Of a stretch of DNA of 64,000 nucleotides, positions 2,736 to 43,463 are shown piece by piece. How positions within the stretch are numbered: position 1 is the stretch's first letter; every line of letters begins with the position of its first letter. The stretch lies in IMG/VR virus record IMGVR_UViG_3300032294_002055, positions 7,878 through 71,877 of that record, one strand, 5' to 3'. The notes beneath the pieces were generated by a model. The model saw nothing but the letters and a program-made list of their open reading frames with translations. It did no database searches and was not told where the DNA came from. This DNA is from a virus. A program made the translations under genes and the position numbers.

Positions 2736-3363
2736 AGAAGATTACGTTCAATTATTTAATTGTATGAGCGAACCATTGAATGGTTCTAATTTACGTACAA
2801 TATTTTTGTTAATGACTAGGGCTCATTATTCTGATTCAAAGAATTTTGGGTATTTAGAAGAGCAATTAAAATGCGCGGTATGGAATTCAGATCATTCTAA
2901 ATCAGCATTAGAAATCGATCCTTCCTACCAATATGATATTAACAGAGATAACCGTAAACCGGGTATTTATGTTGGTGTAGATCAGCCTTGTCAGTTTAGT
3001 AAAGTTGACCTTGCAGCGAGGCAAGGTAATATCCCGGATAATAGCGGTTTCTTCTCAGGACAATTATTGCGCACAGCCGTAAGTTTCATTCATGTATTTG
3101 AAAGCGCAGATCAAGCTTTATTAGCGGCGGACTGCACTGCTTCATTCTTTGTTGGTATTAAGGAATCGCTACGCAATAAATTAAATCTTAGTTCTTTTGA
3201 ACCTATTTCTATTTCTCCTCCAGCCCTCATAGAAAAAGCGCCAGAAAGATTCTTTAGAGTTGACGTGATCTTCGGAATATCGTTTAATTATAGCGTGTTA
3301 GTGAATATAGAAAGTCACCGACTTAAAAAATTCGCTATTGAATTCGCGCCACAAGCGAGTTAA
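2728..3363 (+). CDS. putative tail terminator/completion protein
   Basis: Directly upstream of the sheath gene; likely start is ATG 2728, overlapping the previous stop. Confidence 0.45.
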   Translation: MNKEDYVQLFNCMSEPLNGSNLRTIFLLMTRAHYSDSKNFGYLEEQLKCAVWNSDHSKSALEIDPSYQYDINRDNRKPGIYVGVDQPCQFSKVDLAARQGNIPDNSGFFSGQLLRTAVSFIHVFESADQALLAADCTASFFVGIKESLRNKLNLSSFEPISISPPALIEKAPERFFRVDVIFGISFNYSVLVNIESHRLKKFAIEFAPQAS

Positions 3364-6295: not shown

Positions 6296-8827
6296 ATGAT
6301 TACTCCAAAAGGCGATGCAATGTCCGCAGGTTCTAATCAGCCTGGATTAACTCGCATAGAAGCAGGTCGTGTTTACACGGGCATTATTAAAGAGACGCAT
6401 CATGGCGATGGGCTTTACACAGTAGAAGTTGATGGAATTGGAACAAACATTACTTGTGTATGGGCTGCTGGCATATTCTCTCCTATTCTAGGAATTAGAA
6501 CCAAGTACTATCCTACATTGGATACTAAAGTTGCAATGCTGGCTACAGGTCTAAATTCTGGATGGATCATTACTACTGCGCCTAGTGAGAAGTATGACTC
6601 AGCAGCAGGAGGTGCGCTTACCATGGCGGGTGTTCAGCTAGACGAAGAAAAGCTTGAGCCTTTCGAGCAGGAACTGAGCGGTATGGGATTAAGTGTAACT
6701 AATCCTAATGATTTGCTGGAAGGTGAATTTGCTATAGCCAATAATTTTGGTGTAGCTATTCAATTCCTTACTACGTTAATTAAAATGCAAGCTTCAGAGC
6801 GGGCAAAGATTGAAGCCTCGCTTATGGATGACATGGTGAGAATTGTTAGCGAAACATTTAAACACTACAGCTCATTTGGTGATTTCCAAATTTATAATGA
6901 CGGTAGATTGAATGTAAGATTTGACGGGTCTAGTTATGAGTTTGAATCTTTTGGTAAAGAAAATAATACCGATCCTCTTGTTAATGCTAATAACAAACAG
7001 GTGGAATTCCAGAAAACATATAATGAAACTGGCAGATGGAGATTTAGTGAATACATTGGTTTCCTTGGTGATTTTATTCACACCTTTGTAACTGAACCTA
7101 ATGCTACATTAGCTTCCATTGCTGAAGAAGCTACCCGTCCTGGAAAGGCTCGAATGCAGATGCATAGCGATGGTACAATCTTGATGCAGAGCGTAGCAGA
7201 CATAACCATTGAGCGCGTATGTCGTGTTGTATCACCTACAGAGGTTAAAAGACAGGATGACCCAGAAGGTAATAAGAAAAATGAATTCGATAAGCTTAAT
7301 AAAGAATATCTGAAGATTTGGAGCTACGGTAAAGACATGAGTAAAGCGCATTATGCATCTTACCAATTAAGGCAATATGCACGTTGGCTATCCTGCTTCC
7401 ATTCCTTTGCCCGGTTTCATCAATTAGATAAAGACTGGAAGCTACCTAAAGAAACTGATTTTGAACATTCATGGACTAATCAGGAACAAGATGTAGAGCA
7501 GGCAAATGCAGGGCAAGACACCCTGTATGATGTGTATGCTACATTCAGAATTATGAGAGATGGATCCATATTAATTATGGATGGATTTAATTCTGCTATA
7601 TCTATGGTGAGAGGTAATATTCAAATGTCGGCAGTAAGGCATATTGAATTAGATGCTGCCGGGGATATTAGAATTAATGCAGGGCAGAACCTGTACATTA
7701 AAGCACGACGTAATATTGAGATCTCTGCTATTGTAGGCGGTCTTACATTGAAGGCACGTACATGGTGGAAAGCCCTGTGTGAATGGGGAACAGTATGGAT
7801 TAAATCTGACGCAATCGATCCTTCTTCTGGACAAAGTATTCCTACACCTGAAGATGCTACACAAGATCCTGAACCAGAAGTTCACGGTGCTGCTATATTC
7901 TTAGACGCTGCTAGAGGACAGACTTTAATTCAAAGTGAAAGGAGAGCTACTGTATCTGTCATTGGTAATCCTGATGATAATGATTCATTAACTGATACTA
8001 CGGCTTCTGTTGTTATTCAGAGTAAGAATCAGGATGTTCGTTCTATTGCTGCAAGACATGCAGCTGTTAAATCAGAAGGACGCAGCCAAGGAAAGATTAT
8101 TTTAGATTCCGCTAATGCTATTATTGTTACTGCATTTAGCTTCTTAATGAAGATTAAATTAATATTTGATATCAATAAGAAATTTACATTACGTAGTGAT
8201 AATATTGTTAATGTGGAAGAAATCCGCAGTAAACGAGCGCATTCTGAACAGACAATTTCTGGACCTGAGAATAAAGGCGTTGATCATGAAAATGATAGGA
8301 TTCCACACCACGGACACGGACATCATATTCTTAAATTTAATGGAGATGCAACACCTATTGAATTTGCAGACAACGAAGAAGTACAGCAATTAACTGACTA
8401 TACTTCGGCAGATGTTAATGAAGTTAATCCTCATGAAGATGTAGGCGATCCTGCTAACGGACCTGATTGGGCGTATACCGCAGAAGATAAAACATTTAAT
8501 AATCAGGGGTATGTAGAACAACCTTTAGAAGATGAAACATTCCAGCCTATGGCGCAGCAAAGATTAGCTGAAGATGGTACAGATAATCTTATTGATAAAG
8601 CATCTTATGAAGAATGGGATTGGGAAAATGATAATGCTCTTAAACCGGGTATAAGAACTGATACTTCTAGTCGCCCATTCCCCGGAGCAGCAGCCCAGGA
8701 AAAGAAATTTACAGCTGGACAACCATTGCATCAGCCTTTAGATGAAGAGTATTCGGCGCAGTCTCCTGACAATGCGCAAGATCCTTTAAACCAAGCAATC
8801 ACTCGCAAGTTTATCAAATACAGTTAA
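6296..8827 (+). CDS. baseplate spike/hub protein (gp5/VgrG-like)
   Basis: N-terminal OB-fold-like region and beta-helix-type repeats (IELDAAGDIRINAGQNLYIKARRNIEISA); tail context. Confidence 0.65.
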   Translation: MITPKGDAMSAGSNQPGLTRIEAGRVYTGIIKETHHGDGLYTVEVDGIGTNITCVWAAGIFSPILGIRTKYYPTLDTKVAMLATGLNSGWIITTAPSEKYDSAAGGALTMAGVQLDEEKLEPFEQELSGMGLSVTNPNDLLEGEFAIANNFGVAIQFLTTLIKMQASERAKIEASLMDDMVRIVSETFKHYSSFGDFQIYNDGRLNVRFDGSSYEFESFGKENNTDPLVNANNKQVEFQKTYNETGRWRFSEYIGFLGDFIHTFVTEPNATLASIAEEATRPGKARMQMHSDGTILMQSVADITIERVCRVVSPTEVKRQDDPEGNKKNEFDKLNKEYLKIWSYGKDMSKAHYASYQLRQYARWLSCFHSFARFHQLDKDWKLPKETDFEHSWTNQEQDVEQANAGQDTLYDVYATFRIMRDGSILIMDGFNSAISMVRGNIQMSAVRHIELDAAGDIRINAGQNLYIKARRNIEISAIVGGLTLKARTWWKALCEWGTVWIKSDAIDPSSGQSIPTPEDATQDPEPEVHGAAIFLDAARGQTLIQSERRATVSVIGNPDDNDSLTDTTASVVIQSKNQDVRSIAARHAAVKSEGRSQGKIILDSANAIIVTAFSFLMKIKLIFDINKKFTLRSDNIVNVEEIRSKRAHSEQTISGPENKGVDHENDRIPHHGHGHHILKFNGDATPIEFADNEEVQQLTDYTSADVNEVNPHEDVGDPANGPDWAYTAEDKTFNNQGYVEQPLEDETFQPMAQQRLAEDGTDNLIDKASYEEWDWENDNALKPGIRTDTSSRPFPGAAAQEKKFTAGQPLHQPLDEEYSAQSPDNAQDPLNQAITRKFIKYS

Positions 8828-9928: not shown

Positions 9929-12584
9929 TCCATCCTTTTTTGCTAACACTAGTGGTTTAGGTCCTCAGACAGGAGGATTTAGTCCTACGCCTGCTGATGC
10001 TATTTCTTCTGCTTTTAGGCAGGCTTCAAGCAATGGATTATTAGAATATTCTTTATATAGTTCGCCGCGTGTAAGAGCATTATCCGGGATACTGGCTACT
10101 GGTCTGGCAGGTGATCCTGCTCAAGCTGCAAGACTTTCAGGTCAAAGTCAGCTATTAAAAGATGTATCTGCTTTAGCTGTAGCTGCAGGTCTAGTTCCCG
10201 GAGGTAGCCCCATGCAGCTGGCTTCTAGCGTGCAGCAAATGGTAGGTACGCAGGGTTTCAATGTAGGTGGAAACTTTGGGAGAAATAGTCCTGTGTTTGG
10301 TGGCGGCGTTATTACTGACATGATGTCTCGAAGTGTTTTTGATGCTGTCAAAAATAACTTTTATGACAAAATAACGGACTTACCGAAAAGAGCAGCACAT
10401 GGTTTGAACATGACTCAAATGTCAGAAGCCATGAATCAGTTAACCGCTAGAGGCGCTTTTCGTGGTATAGACATTGGTGAGCTTAACATGGATAAGAATG
10501 GCAAAGTCGATTTTAAGCTCGATAAGCAAAAAATGGAAAGGGTTAATAAAATATTCACTGATTATGCTGGGATGCTTAAAGATGCCAGAAAAATTTTTGG
10601 AGACCTACCTATAGCTGATTTAACACAAAATGCGGAGCGGTTAATCGGTACTTCTTTAAGAGAGTCAGGTAGTATAAGCGCTATGAGAAATCGTATGGCT
10701 AACATACAGGCTACATCTGCTGCTTTCGGTTTAAATCCAGCAGCTGTTGCAAACAGGATGATGGACATGACTGATTCTTTACAGATGGCTATGTATGCTA
10801 ATGCTATGAAAGATCCTCGCATGTCTAGAGATCCGCATATGCAGGCAATTACTGCTACGGCATTTGGACGTAATGCTGCGGATATTTCGCATGCCGCTAT
10901 AACAGGAGGTTTAGAAGCGGCGCATACTTCGACTGTAACATCCAATCTCTATGCTGAGAAAGGTGTATACATACCTACTATGAGTAGCGAAGATGCCGCT
11001 CAAGTTTTGGCCGGAACTATGCAGCAGATGCAGACAGGTCGAGACGAGCATGTGATTGGTAATGTTCTCGCAACAAGACACATGCTTTCTACTGGTAAAA
11101 TAAAAGATCCTGTGCTCGCAGCTAAATTAAAGGATTTAATGAATAAAACAATGTCGGCGGGCAGTGTTCAACAATCTGCTGAATTAAATCAGCAGATTGC
11201 GACTACATTAGCCGCAAATGGCATCAACATAGATAATTATAAAATGGGGCGTACAGATGCTGAAATGCGGCGTGAGTTAGATCCAGCTAGCAGCAAAGCC
11301 CAGTCATACGCGGAAGAAGTAGGTGCGCGACGACGTCTTGTAGAGGAAGGCACGATAGAAATGCATGAAAGAGGAGATGATTTTGGTTTATTTAATCCTG
11401 AAACTGGAGAAAAGAACAGAGAGCTATTCTCAGATTTCATGAGCGGAGTAAATAAAAAATCGCTAGATTCTCTTCTTGGTGCTGTGGGGGCTAATGGCGA
11501 GATTAATCAAGATCAATTAAATAAGGTATATGAAAGTACACCTATGTTGGCGCAGGCTATGCCTATGGCTAAGTTTAAAGAAATGATTTCTTCTTTCGCA
11601 AAAGACCCGGCTCGCGCAAAAGGTAATCTTGTAGATCAGATTAACGCAATGGCTACCACGATGCACCGAGGCTCTCGTTTGGCTGCTACAGGGTCTGCGC
11701 AAGAACGCTTAATGGCGGAGGAGCGTGCAGTTAAAAGCTATTTGCAAACAACTTCTTTAGGAGAGGGTATTGACCAGGAAAGTTTAGGTACTGAACTTAT
11801 GCGTGGGTTTTTTGGTGCTGGTAAAATTGATAACGAGGTTGTTATGGCGAGTCTTAAAAACAAAGGACAACTCGCCAGCTTTACCCAAAAAGCTGGTAAT
11901 ATGGGATTAGATTTAAATACTGAATCGTTAGGTAAATTGTCAGATACTATTGGCGCAGATAGTATGGCTAATATTGCTGCCGAATTAGGTATTGATCCCA
12001 GCGATAAAAAAGCATTAGCTGCTGCGCTTGGAACACCTCAAGGCTTTGCAGTTTTGCAGCGGAATCTTGGCACCAGCGGTATGCGAGTCAACAAAGATGG
12101 TACAGTTTCATTTGCCTCTGGCGCGGCTTTAGAAGAAGAAACTAAAGCTCTAGAGACGCAGGCTATGATGACTGCCGCTAAGAATTTGCTTGGCTCAGAT
12201 AAAAAAATAGGCGGAGATCTAAATACTGAAGAAGGTCGTGCGCAATATAATAAAGATGTATTAAACGAGCTGACGAAAGACAAGGGCAGCAGACTTACTG
12301 AGCTGGCAAAAACATTCAGCGATACTGATTTTTCCGGTAAAGAATTTGAAGCACTTTCTGCACTTTCTAAAAGTAACCCTGCCATTAGAAAAGCTATTCA
12401 AGATTCTGCTAAAGCAGCTAGAGCAGAAGGCACTGACGCAGGTAGAGAAAAATATAAGCAATTGAGCCGCTTAGACCGGGAACTTGCCGCTGATGCTGGC
12501 GGAGGAAATAAATATTTAGGCGTGCTTGAAATTATGTCAGAAAGTCTTACTCAATTAAAATTATTCCAAGAATCTGGAGGTTAA
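9918..12584 (+). CDS. tape measure protein
   Basis: 888 aa, Ala/Gly/Met-rich and predicted helical; follows the chaperone pair. Confidence 0.7.
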   Translation: MSINPSFFANTSGLGPQTGGFSPTPADAISSAFRQASSNGLLEYSLYSSPRVRALSGILATGLAGDPAQAARLSGQSQLLKDVSALAVAAGLVPGGSPMQLASSVQQMVGTQGFNVGGNFGRNSPVFGGGVITDMMSRSVFDAVKNNFYDKITDLPKRAAHGLNMTQMSEAMNQLTARGAFRGIDIGELNMDKNGKVDFKLDKQKMERVNKIFTDYAGMLKDARKIFGDLPIADLTQNAERLIGTSLRESGSISAMRNRMANIQATSAAFGLNPAAVANRMMDMTDSLQMAMYANAMKDPRMSRDPHMQAITATAFGRNAADISHAAITGGLEAAHTSTVTSNLYAEKGVYIPTMSSEDAAQVLAGTMQQMQTGRDEHVIGNVLATRHMLSTGKIKDPVLAAKLKDLMNKTMSAGSVQQSAELNQQIATTLAANGINIDNYKMGRTDAEMRRELDPASSKAQSYAEEVGARRRLVEEGTIEMHERGDDFGLFNPETGEKNRELFSDFMSGVNKKSLDSLLGAVGANGEINQDQLNKVYESTPMLAQAMPMAKFKEMISSFAKDPARAKGNLVDQINAMATTMHRGSRLAATGSAQERLMAEERAVKSYLQTTSLGEGIDQESLGTELMRGFFGAGKIDNEVVMASLKNKGQLASFTQKAGNMGLDLNTESLGKLSDTIGADSMANIAAELGIDPSDKKALAAALGTPQGFAVLQRNLGTSGMRVNKDGTVSFASGAALEEETKALETQAMMTAAKNLLGSDKKIGGDLNTEEGRAQYNKDVLNELTKDKGSRLTELAKTFSDTDFSGKEFEALSALSKSNPAIRKAIQDSAKAARAEGTDAGREKYKQLSRLDRELAADAGGGNKYLGVLEIMSESLTQLKLFQESGG

Positions 12585-37458: not shown

Positions 37459-39057
37459 ATGATTGAGTACCAAAAGTTAATGAGTCATGTGTTAGAGAAT
37501 GGCGTGTACAAAATGGATAGAACTGGCACAGGTGCTATCTCTGTATTCGGTACACAGAGTCGTTACAATTTAAATGAGGGCTTCCCTCTAGTGACGACAA
37601 AGAAGATGTTTACCAGAGGCGTAATTGGCGAGCTTCTATGGTTCATAGAAGGTAATACCAATGCGCGTTACCTGGAAGAAAAATACGGAATTAAATTCTG
37701 GAAAGATTGGGCTGACCCTGAAACTGGGGAGCTTGGTCCTTTGTATGGTAAGCAGCTACGGAATATTGAGTATTCTTATTGGATAGAGCCGAGACTACGC
37801 GTTCAGCCTCCAGAAGAATTAGTTTTAACGCCTATCTTTGATAAGAATGTTGTTGTGGATTATTTGTCTGGTGAGTCGGTATATTTGGGTAAAACAATAC
37901 AAACCAAAGAATGCGGACTTTGCACAGTTATTAAAGAAATTTCAATACCTGGAGAGAGAAGCCAATTCGATGTAAAATTCCACGATACAGGTTACGTACG
38001 TCGTGTAGATTATGCAACTGTACAAACTGACGCAATTAAGGACCCATACTGTCAGTCTGTATATGGCGTAGGTTACTACGGCGAGTTCGCTGAAGACGAA
38101 CACACATCTATGTTAAAAAATGTGTGGCGTGAAATGCTGCGGCGCTGCTACAACTCTAAAAGTGATTCTTATAAAAGTTACGGAGCTAAAGGTATTCACG
38201 TAACCCCGGCGTGGCTTTGCTTCGCTACTTTCAACAAAGACGCTAGAACTTTAACGAACTGGAACTGTCGTTTAGAATATGGTGCCGAATATGAGTTGGA
38301 TAAAGATGTGCGCTATGCCGCCAATTACTACAGTAAAGAAACTTGTATGTGGTCTTCCAAGCTGGAGCAAAGCTACAACACATCGACTAATAGACCTTTC
38401 AAATGTGTAAATCCTGCAGGTGAAGAATTTTTCTTTCGTTCAGTAGGGGAAGCAAACAGAAAGTTTAATTTAAATGTTTCTGCAGTGCATCGTTGCCTAA
38501 ATGGAGAACTTCAAACGCATCACGATTGGAGTAATTTTGAGTATGTATGTGAGGAGGGTAAAGTTTGTAGGACGCGAGTGATTGATCAGCTAAAAGAGGT
38601 TATAGCTGAAATTAAGCATAACCCTAATAGTAGAAGATTAGTCATTAGTTTATATAATCCTCACGAGTTGGATAAAATGAACTTACCTCCTTGTCATGGT
38701 AGCGTAATTCAATTTTTTGTAGATGACGAAAAAAGATTGAGCTTACATATGTATCAGCGAAGTGGAGATGTATTTATAGGTGTCCCTGTAAACATTGCCA
38801 GCTACTCATTGCTGTTAATGATGGTTGCTCAGGTTACTGGTTATACACCGCATGAATTTATTCATACTATCGGTGACGCTCATTTATATTCCAATCATAT
38901 TGAGCAAGCCAAACTCCAGCTTTCCCGAGAACCTCTGGAAAGTCCTATTATGAAGATCAATCCCAATATTAAAAATATTGATGGCTTCAAATATACGGAT
39001 TTTGAATTGGTGAATTACGAATGTTATCCTGCTATCAAAGCAGAGATTGCCGTTTAA
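37459..39057 (+). CDS. thyA: thymidylate synthase with in-frame HNH endonuclease insertion
   Basis: [45 protein letters not shown]; about 270 aa longer than typical ThyA. Confidence 0.95.
37765..38577 (+). mobile_element. HNH/NUMOD-type homing endonuclease domain inserted in thyA (boundaries approximate)
   Basis: WREMLRRCY...[11 protein letters not shown]...W...LDKD...YSKETCMW...EQSYN plus NUMOD1-like [22 protein letters not shown]. Confidence 0.75.
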
Positions 39058-39076
39058 TTAACCTACTATATTTATC

Positions 39077-39106
39077 AAAGGGGTGCTCGTAACTGGGCAC
39101 CCTTTT
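39077..39106 (+). terminator. intrinsic terminator after thyA
   Basis: GGGTGCTC-GTAACT-GGGCACCC-TTTT. Confidence 0.8.
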
Positions 39107-39126
39107 GTGTTATATAAATTTGTACG
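39105..39126 (+). promoter_or_regulatory. 22-bp promoter-like repeat, copy 1
   Basis: TTGTGTTATATAAATTTGTACG, identical to 42293-42314; both copies are intergenic at the head of a transcription unit. Confidence 0.65.
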
Positions 39127-41901: not shown

Positions 41902-42271
41902 AATTTTAAACTATATCAAAGAACAACTACAGCTTACCAAAAATCAGAAAACATATACTGATTGGGAAGAAGCTAGAAGAGAAGGAGCTGAAGGTGTTCT
42001 TGAAGATTTGCTAGAACAATTTTCAAAAGTTAATACCGAGGGCACTCAAACCAAAATCGAGTTACTGTACAACGGTGACTATCCCGGGCACCCATGTGTG
42101 CGTGTAAACGATAAATGGCTTGATTCTAAAGAAGAAGTATCTCTATGTAAATTCTTTAATGTTAACGACCTTAAAGAGTTATATGATAAAGTAGGGCTGT
42201 CCAAAGATTGGGACGGTACAATTAGCGAAGAGCATAAACCTTTTGAAGGTACGCTCTCAATTCATAAATAA
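41894..42271 (+). CDS. hypothetical protein
   Basis: 125-aa ORF overlapping the previous stop. Confidence 0.5.
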   Translation: MDKILNYIKEQLQLTKNQKTYTDWEEARREGAEGVLEDLLEQFSKVNTEGTQTKIELLYNGDYPGHPCVRVNDKWLDSKEEVSLCKFFNVNDLKELYDKVGLSKDWDGTISEEHKPFEGTLSIHK

Positions 42272-42274
42272 TAT

Positions 42275-42314
42275 TTGCAATACTTAGTATTGTTGTGTTA
42301 TATAAATTTGTACG
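42275..42314 (+). promoter_or_regulatory. promoter of the ncRNA cluster (22-bp repeat, copy 2)
   Basis: TTGCAA (42275-42280) followed by TTGTGTTATATAAATTTGTACG (42293-42314). Confidence 0.65.
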
Positions 42315-42337
42315 GCAGTTAATACCTGTTGTGCAAT

Positions 42338-42481
42338 AAGCGTGTGGCGGAATGTAAAACGCAATTTCGTAAGTATAGTGGGAAACTGACCAGCCCAACG
42401 TAACTTAGGTAATCAGTGAACTGTCAGTCTAGCTGAGAACGAAGTTGGAGTCTATTGCAGGTTCAAATCCTGCCACGCTTA
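42338..42481 (+). tRNA. tRNA-Leu-like RNA with ~65-nt structured insertion in the anticodon loop
   Basis: Acceptor AAGCGTG/CACGCTT, discriminator A, Leu-type D arm GGCGGAATGTAAAACGC, T arm GCAGG-TTCAAAT-CCTGC, anticodon stem ATTTC/GAAGT, long variable region; no encoded CCA. Confidence 0.75.
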
Positions 42482-42488
42482 AAATTAA

Positions 42489-42616
42489 ATTGCTCTTAAA
42501 GCGCCCACGGCGTACCGAATGGTATTCTGTGACGGTTACAAGGCCGAATGCCTCGACTGGGTTTACAAAGTCGGTGCTGCTCTGCGCCTTTGCAGAGAAC
42601 GTTGAGTAAGAGCAAT
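42489..42616 (+). ncRNA. twister self-cleaving ribozyme (type P1)
   Basis: P1 ATTGCTCT/AGAGCAAT, U^AA cleavage site (42497^42498), P2 AGCG/CGTT, P4 CGG/CCG with loop TTACAAGG, 3' GAGTA; both pseudoknots (CC/GG and TAC/GTA) are complementary. Confidence 0.85.
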
Positions 42617-42649
42617 ATTGGAATGATATTAGTATAATGTTATTAGAGT

Positions 42650-42785
42650 AACTTCTTGGTAATAATATAAGTCAGCGAACAGGTTCTGCAAAACTTGTGG
42701 CGTCTGACCATCCCGATGAAACAATACCCAGCACATCAACAAGTACGCAGGCATGCAGAAGTTGATTGTGTCCTAAGTTGTAGGA
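42650..42785 (+). ncRNA. unidentified structured RNA
   Basis: No long ORF; nested stems GTCAG/CTGAC, ACAGGTT/AACTTGT, GCACATCAAC/GTTGATTGTGT (or AACTTCT/AGAAGTT) and TCCTA/TAGGA. Confidence 0.4.
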
Positions 42786-42822
42786 GAGCGTCCAGGTAGA
42801 AATACCTGGGCGCTTTTCTTTT
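42786..42822. terminator. terminator closing the ncRNA cluster, possibly bidirectional
   Basis: AGCGTCCAGGTA-GAAA-TACCTGGGCGCT followed by TTTCTTTT; the convergent kinase gene stops at 42828. Confidence 0.85.
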
Positions 42823-42827
42823 ATATA

Positions 42828-43463
42828 TTATGTAATATAAGGATCTACCAGATAAGGGCGTCCTTGCGGCGAAAACATAATATTTCCTGATCCTGCAATA
42901 TCGCTTATATTAACAGGTCCTTTAGCAGTCTGCATAGTTGCAGTATTTGGTAACCCGCCTGCTCTAAAACTTTGGTATTTTTTAGCGGCAGGTATAGAAA
43001 CTCTCTCCGGGTTCAGTGTAGATTTTTGAAATCTCTGTACAAAGTCTAGCCACTGTTTTTTATTACTAGAAGGTAGTGATAAAATTTCTTTTAGAATATT
43101 ACCTGTAGGAGGTATTGGATTCAATCTTGGAATAGCATAACCTCTTCCACCTCTAATTACAGATAGAATATTCGGGAAGATATCCGAAGATGAAAATAGG
43201 TTTTCTATAGCCTTAATTCTTTTCTCATTAATAGGCGATGCCTTAGATGAAATTAATTTTAATGCTGAAGGACCTTGTCCTCCAGTAAAGCTTTCATAAA
43301 CTCGCCCTTCTCCACCAGCGCCAAGCATCTTCGGTTTCCCGGATATGTCTTTTAATAATCTTGTTTTATTAACAGGAAGAGCAGCGATTAGTTTCTCTAT
43401 ACTCTGTGGCGACATTCCTTTAGCCAAAGCACGAACCCAAGCAGGTGATGCCTGTTTATTCAT
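42828..43463 (-). CDS. protein kinase-like protein
   Basis: Gly loop LGAGGEGRVY, SALKL lysine, catalytic-loop-like SDIAGSGNIM, DFG-equivalent LVDP; likely start MNKQAS at 43463. Confidence 0.7.
   Translation of the reverse strand: MNKQASPAWVRALAKGMSPQSIEKLIAALPVNKTRLLKDISGKPKMLGAGGEGRVYESFTGGQGPSALKLISSKASPINEKRIKAIENLFSSSDIFPNILSVIRGGRGYAIPRLNPIPPTGNILKEILSLPSSNKKQWLDFVQRFQKSTLNPERVSIPAAKKYQSFRAGGLPNTATMQTAKGPVNISDIAGSGNIMFSPQGRPYLVDPYIT

Follow-up and report, generated by a model that had tools for sequence, protein, structure and literature searches.

A divergent type-P1 twister as a probable self-cleaving joint in a phage non-coding RNA unit

The stretch of DNA considered here, hereafter the window, covers 64,000 nucleotides (nt) of a virus record of 71,877 bases that is about 40% complete, namely positions 7,878 to 71,877 of the IMG/VR record IMGVR_UViG_3300032294_002055. 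On its plus strand, positions 42489-42616 very probably adopt the fold of a twister ribozyme. As an explanation for the locus taken as a whole, a divergent twister of type P1 acting as a self-cleaving joint in a phage non-coding RNA unit is the one we favour with reasonable, though not strong, confidence. Such a twister would probably cut variable small RNAs located upstream off a conserved RNA located downstream, rather than specifically mature a tRNA.

Twister anatomy and covariation

The twister class was described by Roth et al. (2014), as cited in PMC5113685, and its type P1 corresponds to the Rfam family RF03160 within the clan CL00120. In order and spacing, the element of the window is like the Rfam twister-P1 consensus, read from the Rfam alignment lines, i.e., P1, UAA, a P2 of 4 base pairs (bp), two T2 nucleotides, a P3 starting with C, P4, an 8-nt loop with CAAG, P2', GAG plus three nucleotides, and P1' (Table 1). 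Every twister element listed in an earlier account made from the letters alone, hereafter the sequence-only reading, was found where that account had placed it, both by reading the sequence and from the pair list. The helices P1, P2 and P4 occur in order with the internal loops L1 and L2 and the loop L4. Of the two pseudoknots, T1 joins three letters of L4 with the three that follow GA in the 3' strand of L1 (UAC at 42537-39 with GUA at 42606-08), and T2 joins the last two letters of L4 with the two letters after the 5' strand of P2, here as CC/GG. The core letters, namely the U-A site with the next A, the G-A of the 3' strand of L1 and the AA of L4, align to upper-case letters of RF03160. What departs from the class is the identity of positions conserved at more than 97%, i.e., G13/C31 and C25-C27/G47-G49, which are C/G and U,A,C/G,U,A here with pairing retained. 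The replacement of the usual GC/GC by CC/GG, pointed out in the sequence-only reading, was confirmed against the Rfam consensus lines ('...cgCc GC C...', loop 'UCCCAAGC'), and the two hairpins it had recognised at the P5 position are likewise present at 42550-42577 and 42580-42597 and paired in relatives too. Both P3 and P5 are optional, P3 occurring in 78% of twisters and P5 in 1% (PMC6154101). The minimum free energy fold of the window copy reproduces all helices (z = -3.9) and was equalled by 1 of 200 shuffles.

Relatives were gathered by searches with the flanking proteins and with DNA patterns, which recovered the element in five related viral contigs and, in addition, in three from metagenomes. 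The element is present at ten loci, i.e., the window, L002, L003, L006, L007, L008, L016, L021, L026 and L048, the L016 element being identical to that of L008; including the window, the distinct versions number seven, to which L048 was added as an eighth distinct sequence. In the alignment of these eight sequences, which is model-fitted and as such leans towards structure, 94.6% of the cells are paired and 21 of 44 pairs are changed on both sides (0 of 500 shuffles), against 29-45% of cells paired in slid controls where partners were moved by 1-3 columns. The MAFFT alignment of seven sequences, which is not structure-fitted, gave 92.8% of cells paired and 15 pairs changed on both sides (0 of 500 shuffles). 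Considering the helices individually, the inner 4-5 pairs of P1 are retained in all eight sequences and three of its eight pairs show a two-sided change (through L048); P2 is paired in 100% of cells, with two-sided change in two of four pairs and a first pair that is AU in six sequences and UA in two; P3 is paired in 94% of cells with nine of ten pairs changed on both sides. As regards the extra hairpins, five of the eight pairs of P5a show a two-sided change, this hairpin being absent from L008/L016/L026 and L048, and P5b is paired in 100% of cells with one pair changed on both sides, in L008. All 24 cells of T1 are paired, the middle pair being AU in six sequences, CG in one and GC in one. 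The P4 helix CGG/CCG, the UAA, the GAG and the AA of L4 are invariant in 8/8 sequences; the A.A mismatch at the base of P4 is a C-G in L008, i.e., the pair expected by the Rfam model. T2 is C-G, C-G in all eight, where the Rfam consensus has 'GC' with '...AAGC' in the loop. Folded as single sequences, five relatives presented the same architecture, four of them with z values of -3.0 to -4.8 and none of 200 shuffles as good.

A covariance model built from the seven versions, R1, recognised exactly one copy in each of the five phage records (5/5). Tried on 25 chance pattern matches, it recognised none; these were drawn from the metagenome loci (14 of 15 tried, less the 3 true copies) and the genome loci (11 of 13), with L018, L035 and L039 left out as duplicates of L006, L020 and L014, respectively. 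These pattern matches come from scans for the element that returned only the 5 known contigs from the viral data, 15 stretches from metagenomes, of which 4 are real with one duplicating L006, and 13 stretches from one genome per prokaryotic species, none of which is real; the remaining matches were dismissed as chance, lying in GC-rich coding DNA and failing R1. A looser pattern scan added L048, from an unrelated GC-rich viral contig, where positions 10333-10394 on the minus strand hold a minimal type-P1 twister of 55-62 nt lacking P3 and P5, with T2 as CC/GG and T1 as UGC/GCA. This copy follows the end of one protein gene and a GC hairpin, precedes the ribosome-binding site of the following gene, and is probably an mRNA-processing site.

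With the Rfam twister-P1 model itself, for which the gathering threshold is 67.2 bits, the L016 homologue aligned over its full length (positions 1-68) with 29.9 bits (E 8.8e-4) and so did the minimal L048 copy, with 33.6 bits (E 9.9e-6), both alignments following the same parse as the window copy. A hepatitis delta virus (HDV)-like ribozyme was not recognised: searches with the HDV families gave only chance-level drz-agam-2-2 matches of 12.4 and 9.1 bits against a threshold of 38, the nested double-pseudoknot HDV fold with its catalytic C was not found, and the covariation supports the twister fold. A further stretch, L055:1263-1396 (-), bears a twister-like UAA, a CCC, a P3, a P4 with the loop UGACAAGG and a complementary P2'. 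L055 was kept out of the family despite 26.5 bits with R1, as UAGUC stands where GAG and the T1 strand are expected, with U replacing the general-base G, and P1 is not clear; L055 may be a degenerate relative or a chance match.

Table 1. Features of the twister and of the surrounding non-coding unit in the window
Feature	Position	Strand	Description
Promoter-like block	42275-42312	+	TTGCAA ... TGTGTTATATAAATTTGTA; conserved upstream in L002, L003, L007, L008, L021, L026
5' leader hairpin	42312-42332	+	ACGGCAG / CUGUUGU; from sequence reading
tRNA-like module M1	42337-42482	+	8-bp acceptor-like stem, 3-bp D stem, T arm GCAGG UUCAAAU CCUGC
P1 5' strand	42489-42496	+	pairs with 42609-42616, 8 bp
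L1 5' strand	42497-42499	+	UAA, unpaired U42497, A42498, A42499; aligns to invariant 'UAA' of the Rfam twister-P1 consensus
P2 5' strand	42500-42503	+	AGCG, pairs with CGUU 42600-42603
T2 5' strand	42504-42505	+	CC, pairs with GG 42542-42543 in L4
P3 hairpin	42506-42531	+	optional in the twister class; covariation
P4 and loop L4	42533-35 with 42544-46; loop 42536-43	+	CGG/CCG; loop UUACAAGG
First extra hairpin, P5a	42550-42577	+	core CGACU/AGUCG; at P5 site
Second extra hairpin, P5b	42580-42597	+	CUCUGC/GCAGAG; at P5 site
P2 3' strand	42600-42603	+	CGUU, pairs with 42500-42503
L1 3' strand	42604-42608	+	GAGUA, aligns to 'GAGGG' of the Rfam consensus
P1 3' strand	42609-42616	+	pairs with 42489-42496
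Downstream structured RNA, M3	42617-42781	+	covarying closing helix, CUGCAA-loop hairpins, GAAACAAC ... GUUGUAGG
Intrinsic terminator	42782-42824	+	17-pair stem then T run; conserved in relatives

The non-coding RNA unit and its cargo

The twister lies in a gap of 556 bases (42272-42827) lacking any open reading frame (ORF) of at least 60 amino acids (aa) on either strand, which would be occupied by a single transcription unit made, in this order, of the promoter-like block, a 5' hairpin, a variable cargo, the twister, a conserved downstream RNA and a terminator. The 19-mer TGTGTTATATAAATTTGTA of the promoter-like block occurs exactly twice in the window, at 39106-39124 and 42294-42312, with 0 occurrences expected by chance; the copy at 39106 follows a terminator-like hairpin and precedes an ORF of 665 aa. 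This repeat stands at the head of two transcription units and its core resembles TATAAAT, and a sigma-70 consensus scan did not flag the conserved block. The 19-mer block is likely a phage-specific promoter and is presumed to be the start of the non-coding unit. At the site of the 5' leader hairpin, relatives have another sequence that can still form a hairpin.

Sequence homology between the relatives sets in at 42488, at the edge of P1, and what lies between the 5' hairpin and the twister varies by locus. There is no cargo in L008, a pseudoknot-plus-hairpin RNA in L002, L007 and L021, yet another RNA in L003, a tRNA-like module (M1) in the window, and both the pseudoknot-plus-hairpin RNA and the tRNA-like module in L016 and L026. 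In L006 (4052-4216, minus strand), the cargo is a hydrophobic ORF of 54 aa with a TAA stop overlapping the first base of P1, and upstream of the L048 twister is a protein gene. As the cargo is variable and the twister is shared together with what lies downstream, the constant parts are the twister and what follows.

In M1, some 70 nt replace the normal anticodon loop. Homologous frames exist at 42337-42482 in the window, at L026:7623-7717 and at L016:1089-1275 (-), where the start of the D arm and the T arm are identical, and in these tRNA-shaped frames unrelated inserts of about 24, 70 and 120 nt take the place of the anticodon-loop region. In the frames of L016 and L026, the acceptor stem carries two compensatory changes, and the middle sections are unrelated; these two changes argue that the tRNA-like frame is under selection. 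M1 may be a scaffold RNA derived from a tRNA-Leu, a tRNA with an unusual intron, or a decaying gene. A second conserved small RNA module (M2), absent from the window, lies upstream of the twister at L002:~3215-3320 and also in L007, L021, L016 and L026. Its hairpin covaries and has a loop, GGUGU or AGUGU, whose complementarity to an ACACC or ACACU further downstream points to a pseudoknot; next comes a long GC hairpin whose loop is T-loop-like, and M2 in L016 or L021 had no Rfam match at E<=1.

On the other side of the ribozyme, the downstream structured RNA (M3) and the terminator are common to six versions, the L008-type loci having a shorter tail. The consensus fold of M3, for which five of the six versions were used as the L021 contig ends too soon, comprises 37 predicted pairs, 11 of which show a two-sided change. 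Over 42000-43200, Rfam at E<=10 gave no match to M3 and returned only terminator look-alikes.

Part of the stretch is present in 20 listed sequencing runs, 6 of which are RNA libraries; 4 of these, from 2 studies, were examined and each contains one contig of 224-242 nt. These contigs start at 42509, 42509, 42516 and 42520, end between 42730 and 42756, cover most of M3, and all four cross the junction between the twister and the downstream RNA (42616/42617); from 42280 to 42508 and beyond about 42756 there is no cover by RNA contigs, a lack that is not evidence of absence. They derive from close relatives and show, e.g., T>C at 42553. At 42509, two contigs, one from each study, end without a loose end, and in one contig a sequencing adapter directly precedes 42516. 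These starts hint weakly at an RNA 5' end lying close to the predicted cut.

The flanking genes belong to DNA metabolism, i.e., thymidylate synthase and SbcD-like and SbcC-like proteins. With tblastn, the SbcD-like neighbour gave only matches of about 25% identity, which indicates a phage without a close named relative; blastn matched the unit to none of 50,697 phage records. Within the thymidylate synthase ORF (37459-39057, 532 aa), the synthase domain is matched in two stretches and residues 317-355 form an I-HmuI/NUMOD-like endonuclease segment, so that this ORF looks like a homing-endonuclease insertion or fusion, as judged from its domain matches.

Predicted cleavage and rival explanations

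By homology to the U6-A7 site of the Osa-1-4 twister (PMC6154101), the cut would likely fall between U42497 and A42498. By the same homology, G42604 is the predicted counterpart of G45, whose role as general base is given in that source, and A42605 that of A46; A42498 would serve as general acid. The upstream piece is predicted to end in a 2',3'-cyclic phosphate and the downstream piece to begin with a 5'-OH. The cut would then free the upstream cargo, here the tRNA-like RNA, with a cyclic-phosphate end, and the downstream RNA would keep the compact ribozyme as a uniform 5'-OH end. Self-cleavage at 42497/42498 is held to be fairly probable, both the catalytic activity and the exact cut site being inferred. 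As for the fate of the pieces, neither RtcB (PF01139) nor T4 RNA ligase 1 (PF09511) was found in any of the five records (0/5), which are 21-67% complete, and for the latter the control also matched nowhere; these searches neither support a ligation or circularisation fate nor constitute evidence against it.

Several observations weigh against a self-cleaving twister in the window and must be set beside the evidence for it. Over the whole window, Rfam at gathering thresholds found nothing, and the twister-P1 model gave no match on the window copy at E<=10; the sole local match there was a partial Twister-P5 over P4/L4 (10.3 bits, E 6.7), and on the whole virus record RF03160 gave only an unrelated match of 14.8 bits, outside the window. 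The scores of both L016 and L048 stay under the threshold. The sample is small, with eight distinct sequences of which six are closely related; the outer pairs of P1 are broken in L003 and partly in L048; T2 has no covariation of its own, being invariant in the family; the 'UAAA' that precedes P2' in the Rfam consensus is shortened to AA here and absent in L008; and L048 taken alone folds no better than its shuffles (z = -0.8). The flipped T2 pair is the equivalent of G13-C31 in Osa-1-4, where G13 is one of the four positions inactive with every single substitution (PMC5113685). By mutagenesis of Osa-1-4, activity survived the exchange of most T1 pairs, and of C14-G30 of T2, for other Watson-Crick pairs; rescue by a pair swap is stated there for C14-G30, not for G13-C31, and passages of PMC9901934 did not settle whether a G13-C31 swap works. 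Finally, the RNA-library contigs start 11-22 nt downstream of the predicted cut and not at the cut, and, being contigs and not reads, they cannot give true ends, the more so as RNA libraries may contain DNA.

The lack of an Rfam match had been named in the sequence-only reading as grounds for giving up the ribozyme, and under Rfam this is what was observed at the window copy, which has no such match; its homologues are aligned by twister-P1 in full length below threshold. The miss at the window copy is attributed to pseudoknot letters departing from the consensus, which covariance models score as fixed single-stranded letters, together with extra hairpins totalling about 50 nt. More weight than to this miss is given to the covariation and to the full-length homologue matches. 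The same evidence bears on a chance resemblance, by which the element would be an ordinary, GC-richer stem-loop region unrelated to twister. The absence of any match at the Rfam gathering threshold, and the many unrelated coding regions that also fit these degenerate patterns, could speak for it, but those matches fail the covariance model, whereas the real copies are single-copy and syntenic, carry 21 covarying pairs including one pseudoknot, and in two cases are aligned over their full length by the Rfam model. As far as computation allows, the covariation tests refute chance, which keeps a negligible probability. A search of RF03160 on 151 genomes of one phylum, where the control also matched nowhere, gave 0 matches and is uninformative.

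An inert twister is a more serious contender, even if an improbable one. The fold would then be catalytically silent, serving, e.g., as a nuclease-resistant 5' domain or as a protein-binding module of the downstream RNA; the flipped G13-C31 equivalent, at a position where no single substitution was tolerated and a swap is not reported as tolerated (PMC5113685), would fit, as would Rfam scores that are all below threshold and contig starts at 42509-42520 instead of 42498, as might arise if reverse transcription halted in a stable fold. Against inertness, the residues linked to catalysis, i.e., the U-A site, the next A, the G-A of the 3' strand of L1 and the AA of L4, are invariant in all eight sequences, both pseudoknots are retained, T1 by compensatory change, and the contigs have no upstream extension, which is a weak hint. 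Moreover, a minimal twister of the CC/GG type lies between two genes of the unrelated virus of L048, and a role that is purely structural and linked to the downstream RNA would not hold there.

If the twister does cleave, the question is what for, and the sequence-only reading had cast it as a dedicated processor of tRNA 3' trailers, i.e., a twister-class analogue of the HDV-like theta ribozymes. In the window, L016 and L026, the module with a tRNA-type acceptor stem, a D arm and a canonical T arm does end 16-18 nt before the predicted cut, its frame appears to be under selection from the two compensatory changes, and there is a precedent for ribozymes 3' of phage tRNAs in the theta ribozymes (PMC10879173). 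Still, M1 is not a canonical tRNA. ARAGORN with default settings found 0 tRNA genes in the window and, only when introns were allowed, read M1 as a tRNA-Leu(GAG) with a 63-nt insert at the non-canonical position 33/34; in the same mode, L016 needed a 101-nt insert for a UAG Leu anticodon and L026 a 4-nt anticodon. The Rfam tRNA model RF00005 gave M1 15.1 bits against a threshold of 29, and a cloverleaf with a 7-nt anticodon loop was not found by the standard tRNA finders. A low-threshold call of a transfer-messenger RNA by ARAGORN on L016 was judged spurious. In addition, M1 is upstream of the element in only 3 of the 10 loci, with L008 devoid of cargo and protein genes upstream in L006 and L048, and the genuine tRNAs above cut-off in three relatives (8, 10 and 3, i.e., 21) all lie tens of kb from the single twister copy. 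As the predicted cut falls 16 nt beyond the discriminator base, it would make no mature 3' end, and the 16-nt trailer would still need trimming. The trailer-processor role was therefore not upheld, and we regard it as distinctly unlikely; of the theta analogy, the geometry holds in this one window and does not extend to the general function of the element.

For the self-cleaving joint preferred here, the role as a joint or insulator is an even bet, its purpose, like the promoter, being inferred from the unit. An extended version can be entertained, though it is doubtful, where the unit would be a natural plug-in RNA expression cassette with the twister as fixed joint and exchangeable cargos, namely tRNA-Leu-derived scaffolds with unrelated inserts of 24-120 nt, a pseudoknot RNA and a small ORF; the tRNA-shaped cargos with cyclic-phosphate ends would then act as effectors on host systems that sense or cut tRNA.

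Relation to known systems and significance

With type-P1 twisters, the element shares the order of elements from P1 to P1', an 8-nt L4 with CAAG, the U-A site, the G-A dinucleotide and two pseudoknots. It differs (i) by one flipped T2 pair, CC/GG versus GC/GC, (ii) by a T1 of UAC/GUA here, and UCC/GGA or UGC/GCA in relatives, versus CCC/GGG, (iii) by a first P4 pair that is A.A (C-G in L008), (iv) by two hairpins instead of one stem at the P5 site and a shortened A-rich stretch before P2', and (v) by scores below the Rfam threshold or no match at all, and by its setting in a phage non-coding RNA unit. The twister class being known, what is new is the re-paired T1, the flipped T2 pair, the double hairpin at the P5 site and the natural setting.

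The theta ribozymes are minimal HDV-like ribozymes adjoining tRNAs in gut Caudoviricetes according to PMC10879173, in which the word twister has 0 occurrences. Like the predicted behaviour of the present element, they are small and self-cleaving, cut at their own 5' edge and leave a cyclic phosphate on the upstream RNA, and in this window the position 3' of a tRNA-shaped RNA in a phage is also shared. In contrast, the ribozyme class and fold are different here, the upstream element is neither a canonical tRNA nor a constant partner, and the predicted cut falls 16 nt past the discriminator. The recoding context is not seen either, the long ORFs of the window being open under the standard code, and the DNA datasets containing this stretch are labelled as lake or freshwater metagenomes, not gut.

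Engineered ribozyme insulators and ribozyme-flanked RNA cassettes use a ribozyme to separate a variable upstream part from a constant RNA downstream, for which it fixes the 5' end. Those are man-made, whereas the arrangement described here is natural and its purpose is read from the layout. Full-text literature searches, outside the coverage of which lie about 1.7 million PubMed Central articles, returned no paper linking twister ribozymes with Caudoviricetes and nothing relevant on twister with phage and tRNA-like RNAs.

Because the subtype with a flipped T2 and a re-paired T1 escapes curated models, counts of twisters in viral data may be too low, and retraining a model could bring further ones to light. 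The naturally flipped equivalent of the G13-C31 pair further offers a direct test of whether identity or pairing is needed at that position. According to PMC6765202, the chemistry of twisters is well understood and their biological roles are largely unknown. In an uncultured phage lineage, the locus provides a defined natural setting for a twister, which is single-copy and syntenic and links exchangeable small RNAs to a conserved one; the plug-in cassette, if true, would be the first concrete biological role for twister ribozymes.

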